A stretch of 64,000 nt of DNA from a phage: NCBI GenBank assembly GCA_012365435.1, contig GCA_012365435.1_4518.1; one strand, written 5' to 3'. Each line of letters begins with the position of its first letter. The first letter of the stretch is position 1. The notes below the pieces were generated by a model. It was given only the letters and a program-made list of their open reading frames with translations, was not told the origin of the DNA and did not search any database. Below, piece by piece: positions 6,449 through 56,007 of this stretch. Both the position numbers and the translations under genes were made by a program.

Positions 6449-6713
6449 CTAATTTCCTTAATTGATACTGCAACGAGCTAATAATTTCTTCGTTCATTTT
6501 AATATACATGTCGCGCAAGAAAGGTTTTAACCCATCACGAATAATTGCTAACGTATCACCTTTACATAAATTAACCAAATAAGGATGGTCTAAAGCATCC
6601 CAACCAGGCTGATTAGCATACATACCATAATTTTCTTCCATCATAGCATTCAGGCGTTTGATATGATTAATGTTGGCTTCAATAGCATCAATCTGGAGTT
6701 GTTTAAGATTCAT
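6432..6713 (-). CDS. Hypothetical protein (93 aa)
   Basis: ORF track, tightly packed with neighbours on same strand. Confidence 0.45.
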   Translation of the reverse strand: MNLKQLQIDAIEANINHIKRLNAMMEENYGMYANQPGWDALDHPYLVNLCKGDTLAIIRDGLKPFLRDMYIKMNEEIISSLQYQLRKLDDENN

Positions 6714-10724: not shown

Positions 10725-10752
10725 TTTGTGTTCCTCATGTTTCAGTAGGACT

Positions 10753-10781
10753 ACTATACCATAATCCTACCGTGTTGTAAA
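10753..10781 (-). promoter_or_regulatory. Early promoter
   Basis: - strand GTTTACA, 17 nt, TGG-TATAGT; sits in palindrome taggacta...taatccta. Confidence 0.55.
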
Positions 10782-11238: not shown

Positions 11239-11264
11239 GATGTTATCCTCTTTTAGATAGGACT

Positions 11265-11293
11265 ACTATATCATAGTCCTACTTAGTTGTAAA
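11265..11293 (-). promoter_or_regulatory. Early promoter
   Basis: - strand GTTTACA, 17 nt, TATAGT; -10 embedded in perfect 8-bp inverted repeat taggacta/tagtccta. Confidence 0.55.
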
Positions 11294-19895: not shown

Positions 19896-19923
19896 AATAT
19901 TCTCCTCTTGTTTTGATAGGTCT

Positions 19924-19952
19924 ATAGTATCATAGACCATAGTTGTTGTACA
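19924..19952 (-). promoter_or_regulatory. Early promoter
   Basis: - strand TGTACA, 17 nt, TACTAT; -10 inside palindrome aggtctat...atagacc. Confidence 0.5.
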
Positions 19953-20477: not shown

Positions 20478-20536
20478 ATTATTCTCCTCTGGTTGATATG
20501 GTTATAATATCAAAACCGGAGGAGAAGTAAACAACT

Positions 20537-26504: not shown

Positions 26505-26531
26505 GATAGACCTCCATTTAAAGATAAGCCT

Positions 26532-26559
26532 ATCATAACACGAGAGGAGGGAATGTAAA
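26532..26559 (-). promoter_or_regulatory. Putative early promoter upstream of modB
   Basis: - strand TTTACA, 16 nt, TATGAT. Confidence 0.4.
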
Positions 26560-32208: not shown

Positions 32209-32237
32209 TTTAACTCCTTAGTTGATTTGATAGGACT

Positions 32238-32266
32238 ACTATACTATAGTCCATCTATAATGTAAA
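32238..32266 (-). promoter_or_regulatory. Early promoter upstream of sp
   Basis: - strand GTTTACA, 17 nt, TATAGT; -10 inside palindrome ggacta...tagtcc. Confidence 0.55.
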
Positions 32267-32271
32267 CAAGT

Positions 32272-32520
32272 TTATTCTTTTTCGCGAATAATAATTACTT
32301 GTTGAGGCTGCTGAGCCGGTTTCTTTTCGGCAACGATAGACCAAATTAAAGTTCCAATCCAACCAACCATCGTCCAGTTAAAGAGTAAAGATACAAAGAA
32401 GATTGCTGTTGTGCTTTTTGTGCCACGAATAAGTGCGATTACCCAAGGCAACATGTAAATGATGATTGAACCAATACCTGCGATTAAAACTGCTACTGAA
32501 CTAGCCACGAATAATTCCAT
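32272..32520 (-). CDS. Imm-family (superinfection immunity-like) small membrane protein
   Basis: 82 aa, two TM segments, block LLFNWTMVGWIGTLIWSIV resembling the Imm_superinfect family consensus as recalled. Confidence 0.5.
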   Translation of the reverse strand: MELFVASSVAVLIAGIGSIIIYMLPWVIALIRGTKSTTAIFFVSLLFNWTMVGWIGTLIWSIVAEKKPAQQPQQVIIIREKE

Positions 32521-32581
32521 GTTAATTTCCTCTTGATTTGTTATGTTTATAGTATCTTGGTTTAACTTTGGTGTAAACCAA

Positions 32582-32950
32582 TTAATTAAATTTGTTTAAA
32601 CGTTCAATACACTGGACGTAGTTATTCGCGATTTGTTTCTGGGTAGGCTCTTTACCAGTTGTTTCAACATAGCGAATAAATGCGATTTCAGTAGCCTGTA
32701 GACAATGTTCTTTAACGCGTTGTTCTTTTGACATAGCTACAGTATCAGAGTCACGATAACGTTGAGCATGAGCATCAGCTTGAATCATTCGATTACCTAC
32801 AGTAACCGGGTCTTCCACTTCAACTTTAGGTTGGTTGTACTGTTTAACATTCGGATTGTAAATCAGTTGGCCAACGTTATTAGGGATAAAGCCATGAGCA
32901 CCACATCCGGTTAATCCAAATACCATTGCTAAAGCGATTAATTTTTTCAT
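32582..32950 (-). CDS. Putative lipoprotein (122 aa)
   Basis: Start at ATG with GAGGAA RBS gives MKKLIALAMVFGLTGC, a lipobox signal peptide. Confidence 0.55.
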   Translation of the reverse strand: MKKLIALAMVFGLTGCGAHGFIPNNVGQLIYNPNVKQYNQPKVEVEDPVTVGNRMIQADAHAQRYRDSDTVAMSKEQRVKEHCLQATEIAFIRYVETTGKEPTQKQIANNYVQCIERLNKFN

Positions 32951-32978
32951 TTCAATTTCCTCTATAGTTGATAGGTCT

Positions 32979-33007
32979 ATAGTATCACTACCATAGACCC
33001 CTGTAAA
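32979..33007 (-). promoter_or_regulatory. Early promoter upstream of lipoprotein gene
   Basis: - strand GTTTACA, 17 nt, TACTAT; flanked by inverted repeat aggtctat/atagacc. Confidence 0.55.
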
Positions 33008-33020
33008 CAATTATTTTATT

Positions 33021-33367: not shown

Positions 33368-33685
33368 TTAGATTTCCTCACAGAAGGCCCATTCAGCGTG
33401 ATAAACTGTAGCACCTTTAGTATCATTCATTTGAACTACGTCTACCGGAGAAATTACTCGATAGAGACGTGGTTCACCTCCATAAGAGCGTGCTGCTCGT
33501 CCTGCATAAATCTTTGCTAAACCGATATCTTCAGTAAAGAATACACGATCCAAGTTTTTCTTACGTCCAGTTTCAGACAGAACTCCTGTTTCTTCAGGAG
33601 GACAAAGCATGTTTTCGATGTTAGCTGAACTACTTGAACCGTGATAAAAAATCTTAAATTCTGCTTTACAATCGATGGTTTTCAT
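33368..33685 (-). CDS. Arr-like putative mono-ADP-ribosyltransferase (105 aa)
   Basis: FYHGSSS, RVFFTED, RLYRVISP blocks resemble FYHGT/YFSAL/YIYIVEP of the rifampin ADP-ribosyltransferase fold; inserted between dmd and 41. Confidence 0.45.
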   Translation of the reverse strand: MKTIDCKAEFKIFYHGSSSSANIENMLCPPEETGVLSETGRKKNLDRVFFTEDIGLAKIYAGRAARSYGGEPRLYRVISPVDVVQMNDTKGATVYHAEWAFCEEI

Positions 33686-33711
33686 TTTGTTCTCCAGTAG
33701 TTGATAGGTCT

Positions 33712-33739
33712 ATAATAACACAACTACTGGAGAAGTAAA
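33712..33739 (-). promoter_or_regulatory. Early promoter upstream of Arr-like gene, bracketed by 10-bp perfect inverted repeat
   Basis: - strand GTTTACT, 16 nt, TATTAT; ccagtagttg (33694-33703) and caactactgg (33721-33730) flank the -10. Confidence 0.45.
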
Positions 33740-33740
33740 C

Positions 33741-34115
33741 TTAAAAACGTAATTTAGATATATCTGCGTTGATTTCGTTTTGGTTTGCGTCGTATGCAAT
33801 TAAACGAACCGCTTTAGATGGGTCATTCAATGCATAGAAATGATGGAACATTGCTCGAACGATATCACCATTTACGAGTTCTACCTGGATAGGAGAACCT
33901 TTTTCGAGTTGGAAATGTTCATAAGCTTTGATGGTTCGTAGATAATCAAGTTTTTGATTTCCCGCTCCAACTATTTGTACGATACGTTTGCCCATGTTTT
34001 CCATACGAGATACAATAGTTTTAGGAGCAAGAATAACGTAGGTTTCCAGCGGAGAAACTACTTCAACAGTTGTGTTTTCGGTGATTGCAGTAAAAATTGC
34101 TTGAGACATATTCAT
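33741..34115 (-). CDS. Hypothetical protein (124 aa)
   Basis: ORF track; own early promoter; between dmd region and gene 41. Confidence 0.5.
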   Translation of the reverse strand: MNMSQAIFTAITENTTVEVVSPLETYVILAPKTIVSRMENMGKRIVQIVGAGNQKLDYLRTIKAYEHFQLEKGSPIQVELVNGDIVRAMFHHFYALNDPSKAVRLIAYDANQNEINADISKLRF

Positions 34116-34144: not shown

Positions 34145-34173
34145 ATCATATCATGCCTAGAGGAAGATGTAAA
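34145..34173 (-). promoter_or_regulatory. Early promoter
   Basis: - strand GGTTTACA, 17 nt, TATGAT. Confidence 0.5.
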
Positions 34174-34180
34174 CCCCGAA

Positions 34181-34198
34181 AGGAGACCGAAGTCTCCT
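34181..34198 (-). terminator. C(UUCG)G hairpin immediately after gene 41 stop (possible bidirectional terminator)
   Basis: aggagac-cgaa-gtctcct; T-run follows on + strand, UUUCGGGGUUU on - strand. Confidence 0.45.
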
Positions 34199-34203
34199 TT
34201 TTA

Positions 34204-50017: not shown

Positions 50018-51706
50018 TTATGAAACAGTCATCACAGTAAATCGTCCAACTTTGCTCATTTGAAGATGTTGTCCATAAGCTTGTGGGTCATGGTCTCTGT
50101 GACTAATTATAAACACATTTGCATCGGTTAGAGAGTTAAGAATTGTTGAAATAGCTTTAATACCTTCAGAATCAGTCGCGGAATCCATGACTTCATCCAT
50201 AATTAATGTATTGATTCTAACACCAGAGACCTTTTCAGCAATATCTCGCCATGTAAACAACAATGCGATATCGATACGTGCCTTTTCACCTTGACTAAAT
50301 GAAGCATAACTGAACTCTTCGCGTCCACGTGATTTTATAGATTCATTGAATTCTTCATCAATAGAAAACACGTAATCAGCTTCCATGATTTTAAGATAAT
50401 GGTTAATCTGCTTGTTGAACAGAGGCACATATTTTTTAATGATAGCACCTTTAATACCAGAATCTTTTAACATATCTGTGATAATACCACGATGGTATTT
50501 TTCAAGAACGATATCTGATTTTGTTTTAATGATTTTATCAAGTTCTTTTTGAAGCAAAGCTATCTCATCGGCATGGTCGATAAATTCCGCCGAGGCTTGT
50601 TCTATTGCAGCTTTAACTTTCTTAGCTTTATCAATAGTGGCAATCATTGCTTGTTTCTTGGTACGGATATCGGATGCAAGGTCCTGTTTAGTCTTAACAT
50701 TAGCTCGATATTCGTCCACTAGGACACTCAGATTATCTCTGTGACAGGTAAGTTGCTCGAATGAGTGATTACATTCATGAAGCTTATCGGTAATCTTAGA
50801 GACAATAGGATCACCCTGGTGCAACTGTGATGCACAAGTAGGACATGTGCCACCGTCATGATACATCTTAATAACTTTGTTATATGAGTCGATTTTAGAT
50901 TTAATCAAGAATGCTTCTTGTCCGATCTTGTTGAATGCCTCAGTAGGGTCTTCGTCAAGAACGATATTAAGTAGACGCTCATTAGCTTCTTCAATTTCTG
51001 CTTTTAATGAACGAGCTTCTTTGGCTAGGTCGTCATACATATTCTGTAGACGTGCTACATTATCGCCAGATAATTTCTTTTGACGTTCGATATTCTCGTT
51101 ATAAATCTTAATTTGTTGGATAATACCATCTTTCTTGGCATCGAGAACTTGTCCCTGGGAATTAAGTTCTCGAACTTGAGACTTATTGATTTTATCCATT
51201 TCGGCAAGTGTTCCAACTTCTAATAAGTCTTCAACAAGCTTTCTGCGAGCAGGGGTGCTAAGAGCCATGAAAGGGGTATACCCTGCCGTCCCAAGCACAA
51301 CGATCTGTTTAAAAGACGCGTATGACATTCCGATGCTACGTTCAAATTCTTCTTGGAAGTCACGACTGCTGGCAGATTCATCGAGACGAACACCGTCAAC
51401 GGAGATTTCGAAAATATTGGGCTTTTGGCCGCGTCTAATGAAGTATTTTTTATCATCGAATTCCATCCAAAGCTCAACTAAGAGCTCTTTCTTGTTCGTG
51501 CTATTAATGATTTGTCCTTTCTTAACATCACGAAATGGTTTACCGAAAAGTCCGAAAGTAATGGCTTCTAACATCGTAGATTTACCACCGCCATTTTTAC
51601 CAGTGATTAATGTCTTTTGGACTTTATCTAATTGGATATCAATAGGATTCCCACCTACCGACATGATGTTTTGATAACGAACACGATTTAATTTAAATGA
51701 TTTCAT
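50018..51706 (-). CDS. 46: Recombination nuclease subunit gp46 (SbcC/Rad50-like ATPase)
   Basis: 562 aa; Walker A GKNGGGKST, central coiled coil with CPTC zinc hook, C-terminal signature/D-loop. Confidence 0.85.
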   Translation of the reverse strand: MKSFKLNRVRYQNIMSVGGNPIDIQLDKVQKTLITGKNGGGKSTMLEAITFGLFGKPFRDVKKGQIINSTNKKELLVELWMEFDDKKYFIRRGQKPNIFEISVDGVRLDESASSRDFQEEFERSIGMSYASFKQIVVLGTAGYTPFMALSTPARRKLVEDLLEVGTLAEMDKINKSQVRELNSQGQVLDAKKDGIIQQIKIYNENIERQKKLSGDNVARLQNMYDDLAKEARSLKAEIEEANERLLNIVLDEDPTEAFNKIGQEAFLIKSKIDSYNKVIKMYHDGGTCPTCASQLHQGDPIVSKITDKLHECNHSFEQLTCHRDNLSVLVDEYRANVKTKQDLASDIRTKKQAMIATIDKAKKVKAAIEQASAEFIDHADEIALLQKELDKIIKTKSDIVLEKYHRGIITDMLKDSGIKGAIIKKYVPLFNKQINHYLKIMEADYVFSIDEEFNESIKSRGREEFSYASFSQGEKARIDIALLFTWRDIAEKVSGVRINTLIMDEVMDSATDSEGIKAISTILNSLTDANVFIISHRDHDPQAYGQHLQMSKVGRFTVMTVS

Positions 51707-54747: not shown

Positions 54748-54819
54748 AAGTACCTCTTGGCTCAATTCATAGGTCTATTATATCATAATATTTAGAGACC
54801 TATCTTAAAGCACGAGATA

Positions 54820-55947: not shown

Positions 55948-55978
55948 GATATTTTCCTCATTTTAAGACGATAGGAAG

Positions 55979-56007
55979 ATAATAACATGTCTTCCTATCG
56001 TTGTACA
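55979..56007 (-). promoter_or_regulatory. Early promoter flanked by 11-bp perfect inverted repeat
   Basis: - strand TGTACA, 17 nt, TATTAT; cgataggaaga / tcttcctatcg flank the -10. Confidence 0.5.

Follow-up and report, generated by a model that had tools for sequence, protein, structure and literature searches.

The DNA analysed here is a 64,000-nucleotide stretch of a phage genome (contig GCA_012365435.1_4518.1 of the NCBI GenBank assembly GCA_012365435.1), referred to throughout as the window. Between two small open reading frames (ORFs) of its minus strand it carries an early promoter whose -10 hexamer lies between the arms of a perfect inverted repeat, which raises the question of why a promoter should stand inside a palindrome. 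A preliminary description of the window had noticed such repeats at several early promoters and had offered three explanations: a composite terminator-promoter, a processing site for readthrough transcripts, or an operator for a phage or host regulator. Our analyses favour, with a probability of about 0.55, early-promoter cassettes of the PeSL type (an early promoter combined with a stem-loop), whose hairpin would form on RNA reading through from upstream and, at the focal site, would mask the Shine-Dalgarno (SD) sequence of the next gene.

The focal promoter reads GTTTAC-N17-TGT-TATTAT from 33740 to 33712, with AGACCT between the -10 hexamer and the predicted +1, and the geometry of this start is the same as that which gives the T4 promoter Pe133295 its GenBank name. 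The coordinates quoted earlier for the inverted repeats were correct, and two of the three repeats proved to be longer than stated (12 bp at 55968 and 14 bp at the focal site). The focal repeat is perfect over its 14 bp (33690-33703/33721-33734) and encloses a loop of 17 nucleotides. It had been overlooked that its downstream arm holds the SD (GGAG) of the following gene. RNA reading through the site, from 33745 to 33675, was predicted to fold with -21.9 kcal/mol (z -5.6, with none of 200 shuffled sequences as stable), and GGAG was fully paired in both the minimum free energy and the centroid structures. The predicted +1 lies downstream of the 5' arm, so that the promoter's own transcript is expected to lack this arm, and RNA starting there gave 0 kcal/mol, with no predicted structure. 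Since a second early promoter (34145-34174) is located about 430 nucleotides upstream and no terminator-like site was called between it and 33740, readthrough RNA is expected at the focal site. Because the 3' arm includes the SD, the downstream 105-codon ORF is predicted to be readable only from its own transcript. Its translation, as well as the exposure of GGAG to cleavage of the RegB type, would be limited to RNA from its own early promoter, and RNA arriving from the promoter about 430 nucleotides away would leave it silent. The logic would match that of the T4 genes e, soc, 49 and I-TevI, except that the hairpin encloses an early promoter.

Over 8 kb around the focal site, the window is 98% identical to Escherichia phage 55 and to the Shigella phages Shf125875 and SHSML-52-1. 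Shf125875 is classified as a Mosigvirus (RB69 group), and by this sequence identity the source phage is an RB69-like (Mosigvirus) phage of the T4 type. Genes are oriented on the minus strand from about 6 kb onward, and the proteins encoded downstream of the promoters are 30-90% identical to their T4 homologues (asiA, motA, cef, motB.2, sp, imm and gene 55). The early promoters had been recognized in the preliminary description by a motif read on the plus strand, TTGATAGGWCTAYWRTATC, which we searched with up to three mismatches. It gave 11 matches in the window, compared with 0.28 expected, and all of them (11/11) were on the plus strand. Seven of the eight sites cited before were recovered within 1-2 nucleotides (5673, 8172, 11254, 19913, 32227, 32968 and 33701); at the eighth (55970) the motif has diverged further, with five mismatches, and additional copies were found at 20493, 25883, 32538 and 54766.

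This plus-strand motif is the reverse complement of the minus-strand early promoters GTTTAC-N17/18-(TGn)TAYWRT-AG(A/T)CCT-ATCAA. In the consensus of this lineage TGn is often present, with A at -6, C/C/T at -3 to -1 and ATCAA at +1 to +5. The 20 minus-strand early promoters that we curated in the window also show an A-rich stretch at -40 to -45, and an SD and an ATG (the latter at about +21 to +26) are found downstream of these promoters. An independent generic promoter scan called the same motif sites, so that both the consensus and the scan bear out the claim that the motif marks early promoters in a block spanning the -10 and start region. Conserved blocks beyond the -35, TGn and -10 elements have already been reviewed for T4 early promoters (PMC2988021), and a preference for C at -3 to -1 is known from those of RB69 (PMC1524935). 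The motif agrees with the T4-type early promoter consensus (GTTTAC-N17/18-TGnTAtAaT plus start region) in its RB69-lineage form and is therefore of a known kind rather than a separate element, a point missed in the preliminary description. That text had also considered that the motif might be just this consensus with palindromy no greater than chance; the former was found to be the case and the latter was not, the repeats exceeding chance as detailed below. As a separate observation, the conserved blocks are themselves self-complementary in both the window and T4, where TGATA (TGGTA in T4, with one G·U) at -15..-11 pairs with TATCA at -1..+4, and part of the start-region conservation could be structural.

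In order to quantify the repeats, each promoter was divided into an upstream block (-42..-10) and a downstream block (-9..+36), and the longest stretch over which the two are perfectly complementary was recorded. Of the 20 window promoters, 8 had a perfect repeat of 7 bp or more around the -10 and 5 had one of 8 bp or more, compared with 8.8 and 2.8% of random genomic positions (binomial P about 2e-4) and with means of 2.0 and 0.55 promoters when the upstream block was shuffled preserving dinucleotides. Promoters also fitted their own downstream block better than those of other promoters (permutation P=0.0007 for length and <5e-5 for duplex energy). A scan of the T4 genome (NC_000866/AF158101) with a weight matrix built from the window promoters yielded 33 early promoters on the minus strand and none on the plus strand, 16 of which carried a perfect repeat of at least 7 bp across the -10 (10% expected, P=3e-8; self versus non-self pairing, permutation P<5e-5). 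Repeats measured 14 bp at Pe57966, 13 bp at Pe6606 and 10 bp each at Pe73915 (ipI), Pe20588 (dmd) and Pe65390 (denV). The comparison was then widened to 46 T4-like contigs with gp41 proteins of 61-99% identity, of which we used about 21 kb surrounding gene 41. Early-type promoters were predicted there by pattern and reduced to 108 with less than 75% mutual identity, of which 38 had a repeat of at least 7 bp and 19 one of at least 10 bp; the corresponding values for non-self pairings were 12.4 and 0.4% (P=1e-9 and 4e-26). In this T4-like set the 5' arm typically occupies -27..-17, within the spacer, and the 3' arm -4..+5. Non-random palindromy was thus confirmed in the window, in T4 and in the 46 other T4-like loci, and it is restricted to a third to a half of the early promoters.

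Pairing is kept although the arms themselves are not conserved. When 146 non-redundant promoters were anchored at the -10 and all column pairs were compared, the strongest signals fell on a single antidiagonal (-18:-5, -19:-4, -22:-1, -21:-2 and -17:-6). At least seven consecutive pairs in the register -17:-6 to -26:+4 were present in 20 of the 146 promoters, compared with at most two promoters when the register was slid by 1-4 nucleotides and a mean of 2.9 (maximum 10) when downstream blocks were shuffled among promoters. Several pair types (TA, CG, AT and GC) occur at each position of the register, and arm sequences differ from promoter to promoter (CCAGTAGTTG, CGATAGGAAGA, TAGGACTA, GGTCTAT, TTCTCCTC and others). 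Compensatory changes distinguish CTCCAGTAG/CTACTGGAG of the window from CTCCTGTAG/CTACAGGAG of the T4 denV promoter, GGTAGGGCT/AGCCCTACC from TGATAGGGCT/AGCCCTATCA at the same position of two phages (L067 and L069), and TTCCTCCTAGATT/AATCTAGGAGGAA from CTCCTAGAAT/ATTCTAGGAG; L089 compared with L090 provides a further case. The orthologous promoters of cef and motB.2 possess hairpins of different sequence in T4 and in the window, the former with a distinct 13-bp repeat in T4 (Pe at 6606) and the latter with an anti-SD/SD pairing of its own. Since the arms are unconserved and their pairing is maintained by compensatory change, a common recognition sequence, that is, a shared operator, is not supported.

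Pairing also differs between the two strands. Immediately flanking the perfect helices, 25 of 72 pairs (35%) were G·T, compared with 13.6% in non-self helices (P=5e-6), whereas A·C, which corresponds to G·U on the opposite strand, showed no enrichment (15% versus a baseline of 18%). Duplex energy was -14.6 kcal/mol for the sense and -12.7 kcal/mol for the antisense strand (Wilcoxon P=0.004), a difference to be read against a baseline asymmetry of about 1 kcal/mol. At the T4 promoters Pe8194, Pe53919, Pe166783, Pe62773 and Pe136312, helices of 15-19 bp formed only when G·U pairs were allowed. These patterns in the sequences indicate a single-stranded structure of the sense strand which in practice would be that of readthrough RNA, because the promoter's own transcript begins between the arms.

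Neither a symmetric cruciform nor a protein site on duplex DNA is expected to show such asymmetries of base pairing and of sense over antisense energy. A DNA-level element, i.e., a palindromic operator or a cruciform to which a phage or host protein binds in order to shut off early promoters, would act where the repeats are centred, on the -10 and the start site, and the mechanism of early-promoter shut-off in T4 is still unknown (PMC2988021; PMC3014915). In view of the strand asymmetry, the lack of any common arm sequence and the presence of the repeat in only a third to a half of early promoters, we consider this explanation highly improbable. Loops of at least 10 nucleotides also disfavour cruciform extrusion. 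The operator for a phage or host regulator suggested in the preliminary description was consequently dropped, together with the cruciform, on the grounds of unconserved arms and strand-asymmetric pairing.

Palindromes could also accumulate as a non-adaptive by-product, if cassettes were spread by recombination, their quasi-palindromes perfected by template-switch errors and the products left without function in unconstrained positions. T4-type phages do shuffle promoter cassettes (PMC2839356, PMC4122927), near-identical leaders stand behind several T4 promoters, and the loop of T4 Pe133295 has been reported in both orientations, which would make the repeats recombinationally or replicatively active. 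We regard such an origin as improbable. The excess persists among non-redundant promoters (less than 75% identical), and the arms differ while their pairing is kept. Helices are extended by G·T and not by A·C, repeats are depleted beside terminators, and anti-SD sequences occupy a fixed position (see below for the last two). The kept pairing, G·T extension, terminator depletion and fixed anti-SD therefore indicate selection on sense-strand RNA.

Two details of the T4 genome are recorded here in their own right. A leader of about 40 nucleotides (ACAACTATCAACTACTGATACGGATTTGGAGAATAAAATG) recurs in nearly the same form behind at least six early promoters (167062, 163649, 70672, 55360, 27056 and 6606), and such repeated promoter/leader modules would be substrates for recombination of the PeSL type. 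In NC_000866, a misc_feature at 133300..133313 is annotated as 'inverted complement of previously reported sequence; corrects the early promoter Pe133295'. This interval is exactly the 14-nucleotide loop, made up of the extended -10 plus -10, between GGTAGAG and CTCTACC in the region 133293-133320 (33293-33320 of L004), and the two reported orientations may reflect either an artefact or a real repeat-mediated inversion, which would switch the promoter off.

The genomic setting of the promoters leaves little room for other sequences. In the window and in T4, upstream stop codons are typically found at -38 to -45 (median -43), abutting the -35 hexamer, and the intergenic region is little more than the promoter and a 20-nucleotide leader. 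We propose that the early promoter would be confined by this stop on one side and, on the other, by the SD and ATG of the following gene (ATG at about +21 to +26). Only two segments would be free to encode a hairpin, namely about -29 to -16 in the spacer between -35 and -10, and about -8 to +16 in the discriminator and leader. They would have evolved mutual complementarity, and the hairpin would owe its spacer/leader geometry to this lack of other free positions. RNA reading through from an upstream promoter would then form a hairpin with the extended -10 and the -10 in its loop, and RNA from the embedded promoter, beginning inside the hairpin and devoid of the 5' arm, would stay open. Opening of the hairpin by a terminating ribosome was considered as a form of translational coupling and rejected; the gaps between stop codon and arm are mostly 6-25 nucleotides, and the ribosome would reach at most the first few base pairs.

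Terminators bear on the same point. A repeat of at least 7 bp was detected in 1 of 13 promoters with a canonical UUCG-loop, T-run terminator just upstream, compared with 37 of 95 without one (Fisher P=0.03), and where orthologues of the focal ORF have gained a terminator upstream, no more than TCTCC/GGAGA is left of the repeat. Classical terminators with a UUCG-type loop (e.g., aaggagaCTTCGgtctcctttcggg) also lie directly upstream of some early promoters of the window, at 34175-34200 and upstream of 28017, both on the minus strand.

In the original view of PeSL cassettes, the hairpin is a transcription attenuator or terminator that reduces incoming transcription, so that tandem promoters are not additive and the embedded promoter restarts transcription. 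Arbiol et al. proposed this for RB49/phi1, where the activity of a lacZ fusion dropped (PMC2839356), and the rarity of repeats beside a canonical upstream terminator is what functional redundancy would predict. The hairpins themselves argue against it, with loops of 10-30 nucleotides, A/T-rich stems and no T-run after the 3' arms (2.1 versus 2.0 T in 8 nucleotides). At the focal site CAAAATG comes after the stem, a terminator scan made no call, and the G+C-rich stem, loop of 3-8 nucleotides and immediate T-run of an intrinsic terminator were not found; an intrinsic terminator was rejected on these sequence grounds. The real terminators of these phages are of the classical UUCG-loop, T-run type (just upstream of 34150 and 28017), and attenuation does not explain the enrichment of anti-SD sequences in spacers. 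We therefore hold attenuation to be unlikely. The idea of a composite terminator-promoter survives in so far as it matches the published PeSL concept (PMC2839356, PMC4122927), and does not as regards intrinsic termination.

The anti-SD tetramers CTCC/CCTC were present in 34 of the 146 spacers, clustered at -28 to -24, compared with 3.9% of background 17-mers and with 9.5±2.5 spacers in composition-matched shuffles (P=4e-17). For promoters with an anti-SD, predicted SD accessibility fell from 0.51 on the own transcript to 0.09 on readthrough RNA, and for those without an anti-SD from 0.53 to 0.36. Accessibility was 0.30 with the native upstream sequence, compared with 0.43 with random genomic sequence (P=2e-7) and 0.36 with shuffled upstream sequence (P=0.003). 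The 3' arm covers the SD at the focal site and at 20482-20489; it does not at 55968-56001, 11258-11281, 32974-32999 and 19919-19938. Masking of the SD, as modelled by folding, is well supported at the focal site, at 20482-20526 and at about a quarter of the promoters. For the majority, in which the 3' arm ends at about +5 and leaves the SD uncovered, the hairpin is most likely an intercistronic RNA structure, acting as an attenuator, a decay barrier or a translation insulator.

This majority class would be accounted for by a role in RNA stability or processing, as a 3' barrier that shields the upstream cistron after leader cleavage (by RegB at GGAG, or by RNase E/G), as a 5' stem-loop that lends stability to the processed message downstream or as a nuclease site. 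Such a role is in keeping with a structure on the sense readthrough RNA that falls precisely into the gap separating two cistrons, flanked by the upstream stop (about -40) and the SD (about +10), and RegB is known to cleave GGAG in early leaders and to be blocked by secondary structure (PMC3014915). Stems of 7-14 bp are, however, too short for RNase III, the sequences single out no nuclease site, and the enrichment of anti-SD sequences is again unexplained, so that we consider this possibility unlikely. The processing site for readthrough transcripts envisaged in the preliminary description holds as far as the structure belongs to readthrough RNA, as judged from the sense-strand G·U excess and the rarity of repeats behind an upstream terminator.

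Several results weigh against a hairpin on readthrough RNA with a masked SD and have to be set against the evidence above. Start sites, readthrough and RNA structure are all predicted for this phage, and the promoters of the 46 loci are pattern-predicted rather than mapped. The repeats are not exclusive to early promoters, as late promoters also show some excess (5 of 21 with at least 7 bp, P=0.056), and one window repeat, the 7-bp TTCCTCT/AGAGGAA at 34150, stands outside any significant fold (z +0.4). Among mismatches inside helices, G·T did not significantly outnumber A·C (6 versus 1 and 2 versus 1, too few events), and transitions with a strong strand bias, acting as palindromes decay, could produce some of the G·T excess. 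Another promoter's upstream half masked the SD nearly as well as the native one (0.32 versus 0.30, not significant), and in a 17-nucleotide window around the ribosome-binding site the comparison of self with foreign upstream halves gave P=0.056; because SDs are alike, masking is partly generic and not promoter-specific. Only 13 of 40 helices reach the SD zone, so that SD masking cannot be the general function, and it was rejected as a universal one on this count and on the non-significant comparison of self with foreign upstream halves. Taken together, the palindromy observed in the window is real, far broader than the window and selected, and is best read as an RNA hairpin on readthrough transcripts. 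The sequences themselves show the repeats, their excess over chance, their covariation, register and strand asymmetry, and the predicted folds; from these we infer that the hairpin exists on RNA in infected cells and has an effect on translation, transcription or decay.

Table 1. Features of the focal promoter and of other hairpin promoters in the window (all predicted; positions in nucleotides of the window)
Feature	Position	Strand	Remarks
Focal -35 hexamer GTTTAC	33735..33740	-	Adjoins stop TAA (33741-33743) of the upstream ORF
Focal -10 hexamer TATTAT	33712..33717	-	Preceded by TGT (extended -10); within the hairpin loop
Focal 5' arm TTCTCCAGTAGTTG	33721..33734	-	-29..-16, in the promoter spacer; contains anti-SD CTCC
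Focal 3' arm CAACTACTGGAGAA	33690..33703	-	+2..+15 of own transcript; contains SD GGAG (33692-33695)
Predicted transcription start, A of ATCAAC	33705	-	7 nt after the -10; inferred
Downstream 105-codon ORF	33368..33685	-	ATG 33683-33685, at +21; ribosome-binding site predicted masked on readthrough RNA
Upstream 124-codon ORF	33741..34115	-	Predicted early promoter 34145-34174; source of readthrough RNA
12-bp repeat ACGATAGGAAGA/TCTTCCTATCGT	55968-55979/55990-56001	-	Around -10 TATTAT (55979-55984); 3' arm is the discriminator/start region; predicted fold of 55968-56001 -18.6 kcal/mol, z -3.1
8-bp repeat TAGGACTA/TAGTCCTA	11258-11265/11274-11281	-	Around -10 TATAGT (11265-11270); fold -15.4 kcal/mol, z -2.3
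Promoter of motB.2 homologue	20482..20526	-	Spacer arm TTCTCCTC (20519-20526) pairs with SD GAGGAGAA (20482-20489); predicted fold -19.2 kcal/mol, z -4.0
8-bp repeat ATAGGTCT/AGACCTAT	54769..54803	-	Around TATAAT (54777-54782); upstream of gene 55 homologue
7-bp repeat GGTCTAT/ATAGACC	32974..32999	-	Around TACTAT (32979-32984)
7-bp repeat GGTCTAT/ATAGACC	19919..19938	-	Around TACTAT (19924-19929); promoter of cef homologue
6-bp repeat GGACTA/TAGTCC	32233..32252	-	Around TATAGT; promoter of sp homologue
GTAGGA/TCCTAC with G·U extension	10745..10770	-	Around TATAGT (10753-10758); duplex -18.1 kcal/mol sense versus -12.4 antisense
Spacer CCTCC (26546-26550) and SD GGAGG (26511-26515)	26511..26550	-	modA/modB-like gene; weak example

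Other hairpin promoters of the window are listed in Table 1, and a scan of the whole window with the Rfam 15 covariance models gave no match at the gathering score. The repeat upstream of the homologue of gene 55, which encodes the late sigma factor, combines the -10/AGACCTAT motif with no recognizable -35 (AAGATA), and may represent a cassette in decay or else a different class of promoter. Inverted repeats are also seen at late-promoter (TATAAATA) sites of T4, those at 116454/116457 (the divergent 26/51 region) and 45638 (upstream of I-TevII), which lie between 8-bp repeats that include an SD-like sequence.

Homologues of the focal 105-codon ORF were found in about 50 T4-like contigs, and its orthologues stand behind different promoter types in different phages. 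A Pfam scan of the ORFs flanking the hairpin promoters, including the two around the focal site, detected no family, so that gene function gives no clue to a need for control. The interval between genes 41 and 61, whose gene content differs from that of T4, contains these two small ORFs without a Pfam family (33368-33685 and 33741-34115). The homologues of imm and imm.1 (32272-33010, minus strand) are placed between gene 41 and sp/61, and in T4 they are found beside genes 42/43.

If the hairpins act as predicted, the promoter spacer, usually seen as neutral in sequence, would double as a regulatory RNA arm, and about 60 bp would encode a promoter, an intercistronic RNA structure and a ribosome-binding site together. 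An early-gene layer would be added to the paradigm of transcript-specific translation known from e, soc, 49 and I-TevI of T4, and the PeSL concept would move from 'terminator plus promoter' towards 'promoter inside an RNA hairpin'. The arms would be mutable targets for separating immediate-early from readthrough expression, which is part of the unexplained early shut-off. In practice, the annotation of T4-like genomes would be concerned, as would the synthetic re-use of these very strong promoters, since their behaviour would depend on transcription entering from upstream.

A more far-reaching and rather doubtful extension would be a general 'promoter-of-origin' code in early regions of the T-even type. 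The spacer would be the antisense of the promoter's own leader/SD, efficient translation and RegB exposure would be confined to own-promoter RNA, and readthrough, delayed-early and middle-mode RNA would be masked or insulated. Were this true, T4-like promoter spacers would be under selection as RNA, and the code would help to explain why early-protein synthesis falls abruptly after early-promoter shut-off despite transcription from upstream.

Hairpins at promoters are known from several other systems. In the promoters of the N4 virion RNA polymerase and in plasmid single-stranded DNA promoters (Frpo), the hairpin is a recognition element for a dedicated polymerase or a duplex promoter rebuilt on entry of single-stranded DNA. 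They share with the elements described here an inverted repeat at the promoter and the possibility of strand-specific G·T pairing. We rejected a promoter of this type, since those of the window have the usual duplex -35 and -10 elements of sigma70 promoters and the -10 is part of the loop. DNA of T4-type phages enters the cell double-stranded. Rho-independent terminators are likewise intercistronic RNA hairpins, from which those of the window differ by their long loops, A/T-rich stems and lack of a T-run; terminators with a UUCG loop coexist with the repeats in the same genomes and are anticorrelated with them.

In T4, the genes e, soc, 49 and I-TevI have a hairpin that sequesters the ribosome-binding site and contains an internal promoter, so that long transcripts are silent and those from the internal promoter are translated (PMC3014915). 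RegB cleavage of GGAG in early leaders is blocked by secondary structure (PMC3014915). The focal site and 20482-20526 share the anatomy of these genes, with the 5' arm upstream of the internal promoter and the 3' arm over the SD and/or AUG. The internal promoter of the T4 genes is a late (TATAAATA) or middle one, which gives an 'off early, on late' pattern, whereas in the window an early sigma70 promoter lies inside, so that expression would be confined to the gene's own immediate-early promoter, and most hairpins do not reach the SD.

The closest relatives are the PeSL cassettes, defined in RB49/phi1 as an early promoter plus a stem-loop in which G-T pairs were noted, and which is most common between -35 and -10 or overlapping -10 (Arbiol et al., 2010, PMC2839356). 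They were proposed to act as terminators or attenuators and as recombination sites, and with one G/C-rich stem-loop placed upstream, expression of a lacZ transcriptional fusion was reduced to an extent similar to that caused by rrnB T1 (PMC2839356); the word 'translation' is absent from the text of that paper. PeSLs were later extended to PST/T4 and nt-1/KVP40, with the stem-loops of T4/PST immediately preceding the promoter (Comeau et al., 2014, PMC4122927), which is the arrangement of the window terminators at 34175-34200 and upstream of 28017. One hairpin, CCACA-agga-TGTGG, recurs with both arms within the spacer and is similar to the PeSL subclass 'between -35 and -10'. The extended -10 (TGTGG-TA...) supplies its 3' arm and the U-rich -10 comes next; this hairpin was found on the minus strand of T4 at 50949 and 167062, and in L064 (5870/20486), L067 (4927), L075 (566/11457) and L076 (11454).

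Complementarity between the spacer and the start region or leader is absent from the T4 consensus descriptions examined, and none was mentioned in the literature searched, an older mention being possible; the search likewise found no T4 transcriptomics of start sites or 3' ends. In the papers examined we met no account of the spacer/leader hairpin with the -10 in its loop or of the register it prefers, nor of anti-SD spacers, of evidence that sense-strand RNA is involved or of such elements in T4 proper. The stems of RB49/phi1 are mostly GGGG...CCCC with short loops, whereas in the window and in T4 the spacer pairs with the discriminator/leader, the whole extended -10 plus -10 is the loop, a register is preferred and a quarter carry an anti-SD; the PeSL papers propose termination and recombination, not translation. 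What is shared is the compact cassette itself, with an upstream stop, an A/T-rich stretch, a sigma70-type early promoter, a stem-loop and an SD/ATG, frequently beside small variable ORFs. At the focal site, a strong early promoter with the stem-loop inside it fills the whole intergenic space. The elements are a variant of the PeSL promoter/stem-loop cassettes and no new kind of element.

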